Part shown: piece by piece, positions 41,400 to 41,573 of the stretch
Numbering within the stretch: position 1 is the first letter of the stretch
How the letters are laid out: every line of letters starts with the position of its first letter
Source of the DNA: Escherichia coli
GTDB lineage: Bacteria > Pseudomonadota > Gammaproteobacteria > Enterobacterales > Enterobacteriaceae
NCBI RefSeq assembly: GCF_003334785.1
Contig: NZ_QOWV01000001.1
Reading direction: 5' to 3' (one strand)
Length of the DNA: 64,000 bases
The notes under the pieces: model-generated
What the model was told of the DNA's origin: nothing
Databases searched by the model: none
Seen by the model: the letters and a program-made list of their open reading frames with translations, nothing else
Made by a program: the position numbers and the translations under genes

Positions 41400-41573
41400 A
41401 TGGCAAACCATCGAGGCGGTTCCGGCAATTTTGCAGAAGACCGCGAAAGAGCATCAGAAGCAGGTAAAAAAGGTGGACAGCACAGCGGGGGTAATTTCAA
41501 GAATGACCCGCAGCGCGCATCTGAAGCAGGTAAAAAAGGTGGTAAGAGCAGTCACGGCAAAAGCGACAACTAG
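41400..41573 (+). CDS. ymdF: KGG-repeat stress-induced small protein YmdF (57 aa)
   Basis: MANHRGGSGNFAEDRERASEAGKKGGQHSGGNFKNDPQRASEAGKKGGKSSHGKSDN, with an internal duplication of the RASEAGKKGG motif. Confidence 0.8.
   Translation: MANHRGGSGNFAEDRERASEAGKKGGQHSGGNFKNDPQRASEAGKKGGKSSHGKSDN

Follow-up and report, generated by a model that had tools for sequence, protein, structure and literature searches.

The window, by which we mean the whole 64,000-nucleotide stretch of Escherichia coli DNA that was analysed, contains on its plus strand an ORF of 57 codons plus a stop, running from ATG to TAG at 41400-41573, whose translation gave the product MANHRGGSGNFAEDRERASEAGKKGGQHSGGNFKNDPQRASEAGKKGGKSSHGKSDN. 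This product matched the RefSeq 'general stress protein' WP_001273658.1 at 100% identity, and the gene name ymdF, the coordinates and the 57-aa length given in the original prediction, a short note on this DNA, were thereby borne out. The gene wrbA lies beside it, as had also been claimed, at 40431-41027 on the minus strand, divergent from ymdF and separated from it by a spacer of 372 bp. The features of the locus are collected in Table 1.

Table 1. Features at and around ymdF, in window coordinates.
Feature	Position	Strand	Basis
Conserved block ATGCAATATGATGTCTA, candidate core promoter with a possible -10 TATGAT at 41369-41374	41363..41379	+	Invariant in the E. coli, Salmonella and Klebsiella alignment (A1); inferred
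Shine-Dalgarno GGAGG, 6 nt before the ATG	41389..41393	+	Read from the sequence
ymdF CDS (57 aa + stop), KGG-repeat general stress protein	41400..41573	+	Translation; RefSeq identity; PF10685 x2; mass match
KGG repeat 1, residues 10-30, NFAEDRERASEAGKKGGQHSG	41427..41489	+	PF10685, E 7.5e-9; DNA copy 41424-41485
KGG repeat 2, residues 32-52, NFKNDPQRASEAGKKGGKSSH	41493..41555	+	PF10685, E 4.3e-9; DNA copy 41490-41551
REP/BIME-type palindromic elements, ymdF 3' region	41688..41770		Inverted repeats I1 and I2; genome-wide matches; Rfam
Terminator-like hairpin ACCGCCGGTAACCCCGGCGGT then TTTCTGTTTA	41802..41832	+	Terminator scan; RNA fold

When an 801-nt query spanning ymdF was used, many E. coli chromosomes matched it at 100% identity, and in these the CDS is annotated as ymdF and stands in the order yccE, agp, yccJ(-), wrbA(-), ymdF(+), rutG(-), rutF. 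The synteny of agp-yccJ-wrbA with ymdF was also observed in Salmonella and Klebsiella, in which the downstream neighbour is not the same. The protein (P56614) had been identified at 5748.73 Da, with its Met removed, by top-down LESA-MS of E. coli BL21 colonies (PMC5594050), and the monoisotopic mass computed for YmdF minus Met, 5748.733, agrees with that value. Compared with E. coli YmdF (b4518; UniProt P56614; WP_001273658.1), the window feature has the same sequence, the same agp-yccJ-wrbA / ymdF / rutG context and an agreeing measured mass; no difference was found, and the feature is the gene itself. That 41400-41573 (+) is E. coli ymdF can be regarded as practically certain, and ymdF is an already known gene, annotated, expressed and phenotyped in E. 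coli and assigned to a named Pfam family. A longer form of 67 aa, starting from an ATG at 41370, was considered and ruled out, as a conserved GGAGG precedes 41400 and the measured mass is that of the 57-aa form minus Met.

The distribution of the gene was followed in complete E. coli genomes with a query of 286 nt, chosen to be free of repetitive elements. A first query, which took in the ymdF 3' region, had returned 148,150 matching places genome-wide, and these roughly 148,000 matches arose because REP/BIME palindromes were included in it. With the 286-nt query, ymdF was present in 5417 of the 5426 genomes as one copy each, at an identity of at least 95% in almost all of them. No match was obtained in the other nine of the 5426 genomes, and a few genomes carried a divergent copy of about 94% identity. 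An IS1 or IS26 element was found inserted around ymdF, in the stretch matching window positions 41030-41830, in E. coli NZ_CP085074.1 and NZ_CP116152.1. A tblastn search of YmdF against the whole window returned ymdF alone, with no second YmdF-like paralogue there; the paralogue gene yciG is located elsewhere, outside the window. Downstream of ymdF, the mechanically called rutG ORF (41830-43272, minus strand) encodes 480 aa from a TTG, compared to the 1329 nt (442 aa) of RefSeq rutG, and the extra 38 N-terminal codons are probably untranslated.

In the spacer between wrbA and ymdF, several blocks were invariant in E. coli, Salmonella and Klebsiella, and each is a candidate for a promoter or operator of the two divergent genes. 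Among these, the block ATGCAATATGATGTCTA (Table 1) sits just before GGAGGTCAGTAATG, which is likewise invariant in the three genera. A consensus promoter scan (sigma-70/sigma-S) did not report this block; it returned one weak site at 41145-41173, no more than expected by chance. Overlapping this sigma-70-like site, the sequence TGTCGCAAAATGACACATTTTT at 41163-41184 is an imperfect TGT-N-ACA palindrome, also invariant in the alignment, that could serve wrbA or ymdF as an operator or as part of a promoter. A further element, TTGATTTATAACAA at 41129-41142, matched an FNR-type palindrome (TTGAT-N4-ATCAA) at nine of ten positions and was invariant in the three genera; the number of FNR-type motifs in the window was not above chance, with two found against 2.9 expected.

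Two ORFs were noticed in the same spacer in E. coli, one of 78 aa at 41231-41467 (+) and another of 42 aa at 41218-41346 (-), and gene calls were present in the equivalent spacers of Salmonella (74 aa; positions 2250-2474 (+) of locus L002) and Klebsiella (43 aa; positions 2282-2413 (-) of locus L003). Their role as a leader peptide or small gene was rejected, as their sequences are unrelated across the genera and the conservation of the DNA is patchy; these ORFs are probably spurious.

Downstream of the gene, the region from about 41571 to 41835 folded far better as RNA than its shuffles (z = -5.7), and the terminator-like hairpin that closes it is likely the end of the ymdF transcript. An Rfam match to ES036/CssrF lay just above the gathering score at 41694-41736 (-), whereas those to naRNA4 were sub-threshold. 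The terminator hairpin CACCGCCGGTAACCCCGGCGG (41801-41822, followed by a T-run) recurs almost unchanged, but without the T-run, at 41627-41647, 174 nt upstream; the two copies flank the BIME, and the repetitive element seems to lie between duplicated hairpins.

The product of ymdF gave two full-length matches to PF10685, the KGG repeat of Pfam (model positions 1-22 of 22), in support of the family assignment proposed originally, and none of the NCBIfam models matched it. The two copies of RASEAGKKGG(Q/K)xS on which that proposal was based are both present, RASEAGKKGGQHS at residues 17-29 and RASEAGKKGGKSS at residues 39-51, but the true unit is longer: it spans 22 aa with the pattern GNFxxDxxRASEAGKKGGxxSx, and 15 of its 22 residues are common to both units. 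Such an identity was reached in none of 5000 composition-preserving shuffles of the protein (mean 5.9, maximum 11). The duplication is also visible in the DNA, in which 41424-41485 and 41490-41551 (62 nt) share 71% identity with a period of 66 nt, that is, 22 codons. The two 22-aa KGG repeats of YmdF are the outcome of an internal tandem duplication.

Scanned in full with HMMER, 1.84 billion cluster representatives yielded 639 relatives of YmdF at E<=1e-3, and its database homologues all carried PF10685. The family statistics were drawn from the best 150 of these 639 relatives, which contributed 310 repeat units. In this sample, each protein had one to five [KR]GG cores, mostly two or three, with 22 residues as the commonest spacing. 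The unit consensus, with the percentage at each position, was F80 .. D72 .. R63 A82 S49 E75 A85 G85 [RK] K89 G100 G100, and the family consensus, again from the best 150 of 639, reads FANDPERASEAGRKGGQxSG; the A, G, K/R, G and G of the core were conserved in 85-100% of the units. Both units of YmdF fit this tandem pattern of about 22 aa, F-x-x-D-x-x-R-A-S-E followed by A-G-[RK]-K-G-G. Judged from its sequence, YmdF is a typical two-unit member of the KGG family. Longer relatives of the KGG type, GsiB of Bacillus subtilis and con-10 of Neurospora, contain tandem repeats of about 20-22 aa, and some ymdF products are named 'con-10 family general stress protein' by NCBI.

The composition of the protein is markedly skewed. 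Glycine accounts for 12 of its 57 residues (21.1%), consistent with its description as glycine-rich, the GRAVY value is -1.71 (Kyte-Doolittle), and only three bulky hydrophobic residues are present (M1, F11 and F33). The computed pI of 9.87 agrees with a basic peptide; 'highly basic', the wording used originally, is nevertheless a mild overstatement, given a net charge of about +3.8 at pH 7 (11 K+R against 7 D+E) and a first repeat that on its own is neutral.

This charge rises in computation to +9.7 at pH 4.5, which speaks for YmdF being a basic binder of nucleic acids, nucleoid or ribosomes that in stationary phase would shield DNA, RNA or ribosomes or keep them silent. Its [RK]GG motifs recall the RGG boxes of eukaryotes. 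On RFHR 2D gels, YmdF was among the stationary-phase proteins at 10 h, with a pI/length of 9.87/57, in an insoluble 'CD' fraction together with the nucleoid proteins Dps and StpA (PMC6904343). However, that fraction also holds wall and membrane proteins, which makes co-fractionation a weak argument, and in the same study a crude ribosome fraction contained RMF and Sra but not YmdF. Together with the neutrality of repeat 1, these data make a nucleic-acid-binding role quite unlikely.

With respect to its structure, no solved protein in the PDB was matched by YmdF in a sequence search at E<=10. A single-sequence AlphaFold2 model had a pLDDT of 66 and a pTM of 0.30 and showed two short helices, at residues 11-24 and 37-45. 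[quoted passage not shown] The helical hydrophobic moment did not reach significance in repeat 1 (p ~0.3) and was borderline in repeat 2 (p ~0.01), so that a transition from disorder to amphipathic helix of the LEA type is without clear support.

According to the Pfam description, a Walker A motif follows the KGG, and it has been stated that YciG has this motif and that YmdF lacks it (PMC9262955). Contrary to that statement, two overlapping matches to [AG]x4GK[ST] were found in YmdF, AGKKGGKS at residues 43-50 and GKSSHGKS at residues 48-55 (window 41526-41564), which would be the starting point for regarding YmdF as a nucleotide-binding P-loop protein, as the family description and some papers imply for KGG proteins. 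The same pattern, however, appeared in 5% of the shuffles of YmdF and in only 11 of the 150 family representatives (best 150 of 639), and the second match was absent from the Salmonella and Klebsiella orthologues. In addition, the AlphaFold2 model contained neither a strand-loop-helix context nor a folded domain, and the sequence search matched no solved P-loop protein. The pattern does not truly define the family and is no evidence that nucleotides are bound; a Walker A motif in YmdF was rejected as a by-product of a composition rich in G, K and S, on the basis of the shuffles, the family counts and the orthologues, and a P-loop function is highly improbable.

The expression of ymdF is well documented. 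Stationary phase had been proposed as a condition in which to look for it, and the protein has indeed been detected in stationary-phase and colony E. coli (PMC5594050, PMC6904343). Dependence on rpoS, also suggested, is in print: the transcripts of ymdF, yciG and SEN1538 are reduced in a Salmonella rpoS mutant (PMC7161692), transcriptome and proteome studies of E. coli and Salmonella rpoS are cited there as agreeing on this dependence, and in the Salmonella sigma-S proteome ymdF is listed with the tightly sigma-S-dependent small ORFs, with peptides detected (PMC5437024). [quoted passage not shown] CsgD targets include wrbA and ymdF, and the wrbA-ymdF intergenic region is listed among them (PMC10002515). 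In E. coli UTI89, ymdF is up as cultures start to form persisters (bioRxiv 10.1101/310961). These published data exclude the outcome that had been named as contrary to the original prediction, that is, no expression under any condition.

Deletion phenotypes, another of the checks proposed, have also been published, in the form of biofilm defects in E. coli. Without ymdF, the biofilm of BW25113 is no more than a patchy monolayer, its cell number lowered about 10-fold, and H2O2 kills 2.9 logs of the mutant biofilm compared to 1 log of the wild type, a sensitivity about 100-fold greater; sensitivity to tobramycin and ciprofloxacin is also raised (PMC9262955). The statement that the function of the family is poorly defined is accordingly fair for the molecular mechanism, but it understates what is in print on expression and phenotypes.

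The homologue PA2146 of Pseudomonas aeruginosa also has KGG repeats and a size of about 5 kDa; biofilm growth induces it strongly, and its deletion results in flat, drug-sensitive biofilms (PMC9262955). It differs from ymdF in its context near katE and in having been placed by genetic evidence downstream of SagS, a sensor without a counterpart in E. coli. Even so, ymdF and PA2146 each complement the mutant of the other, and in a P. aeruginosa sagS mutant, ymdF restored biofilm architecture, tobramycin tolerance and production of BrlR (PMC9262955).

Closer relatives are YciG, in E. coli and Salmonella, and STM14_1829/SEN1538, in Salmonella, which like YmdF have two repeats and about 55-60 aa and are RpoS-dependent; they are highly identical to YmdF in sequence, and the KGG paralogues of Salmonella share about 80% identity among themselves (bioRxiv 10.64898/2026.04.09.717482). 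YciG and STM14_1829 are redundant with YmdF at acid pH: at pH 4.5, single mutants of S. Typhimurium were normal, whereas the yciG ymdF double mutant and the triple mutant were modestly impaired (same preprint). The paralogues differ from YmdF in their C-terminal tails, and the genetic organization is also different, as yciG heads the yciGFE(-katN) operon and ymdF is monocistronic beside wrbA, and data on in-vitro protection and on interaction with YhjH exist for YciG only.

YciG has been classed as a hydrophilin (PMC5437024), and lactate dehydrogenase that was dried together with YciG, at a molar ratio of 1:1, was reported to be protected (Reyes 2005, via PMC3983491). By the definition of Garay-Arroyo et al. 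(2000), as quoted in the latter paper, hydrophilins have more than 6% Gly and a mean hydrophilicity index above 1; YmdF, with 21.1% Gly and its GRAVY of -1.71, falls within both limits. With hydrophilins and LEA proteins it shares these two properties, probable disorder, and induction under stress or dormancy, but it has two repeats only and no sequence homology to the plant LEA groups.

The mechanism that we propose is that YmdF acts as a hydrophilin, an LEA-like 'molecular shield', to which we assign a probability of about one half. Published work shows that YmdF is produced under RpoS in stationary phase, under acid or osmotic stress and during biofilm growth. In this proposal, it would be an abundant, unstructured and highly hydrated cytoplasmic polypeptide and would non-specifically stabilise proteins and other macromolecules as water activity, pH or redox conditions worsen. 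It would act redundantly with its paralogue YciG, and the loss of the shield in a ymdF deletion would result in thin biofilms and in more killing by H2O2 and antibiotics. The proposal is based on the composition of YmdF falling within the hydrophilin limits, on the protection of LDH by the hydrophilin YciG, and on the abundance, mutual redundancy and interchangeability across genera of the KGG proteins, which are abundant enough to dominate the top-down spectra of aged colonies (PMC5594050).

Several results fit the shield less well. The LDH experiment concerns the paralogue YciG rather than YmdF, and the predicted helices are not significantly amphipathic in repeat 1 and marginally so in repeat 2, as described above. 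For the Pseudomonas homologue, no link to stress was found beyond biofilm growth (PMC9262955), and overexpressed ymdF acted on persisters in one direction or the opposite one according to the antibiotic used (bioRxiv 10.1101/310961). In addition, the restoration of BrlR by ymdF overexpression in the sagS mutant resembles signalling more than bulk shielding.

This last result points instead to YmdF as a specific regulatory or adaptor peptide, in which RASEAG(K/R)KGG would bind partners in c-di-GMP, flagellar or biofilm signalling and thereby alter gene expression. The core of the repeat is conserved far more strictly than composition requires, which is unusual for a purely compositional shield, and the listing of the wrbA-ymdF intergenic region as a CsgD target is in keeping with such a role. 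Moreover, a bacterial two-hybrid screen with YhjH/PdeH of S. Paratyphi A, a c-di-GMP phosphodiesterase, recovered YciG three times (bioRxiv 10.64898/2026.06.04.730116), and KGG paralogues of S. Typhimurium reportedly affect flagellum-dependent motility and fliC transcription, as cited in PMC7161692 and in that preprint. On the other hand, the interaction with YhjH is serovar-specific, is weak with the Typhimurium allele and is not explained by the protein sequence (bioRxiv 10.64898/2026.06.04.730116), S. Enteritidis failed to show the motility phenotypes (PMC7161692), and the partner data concern YciG. The interchangeability between distant species is explained no less well by a generic physical role. 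A regulatory role for YmdF is the main rival of the shield and is possible, although we consider it less likely.

A more specific form of this idea, drawn by analogy with what has been suggested for YciG, is that the RASEAG(K/R)KGG core may be a short linear motif that docks into enzymes such as PdeH/YhjH, with YmdF and YciG acting as peptide regulators under RpoS control. We regard such docking as unlikely. If true, decisions on c-di-GMP, motility and biofilms would be tied to the general stress response through YmdF and YciG, which would then not be passive protectants.

As a find of a genome scan, ymdF adds nothing new, since the gene, its regulation and its mutant phenotypes were already in print. 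The biology of interest is how a probably disordered KGG peptide of 57 residues, for which protection of the hydrophilin type is the reading preferred here, helps Gammaproteobacteria to form biofilms and to withstand acid, peroxide and antibiotics. The interest of this mechanism is modest but real, because small RpoS-dependent proteins of this kind are plentiful in stationary phase and in biofilms, and those of one species can replace those of another.
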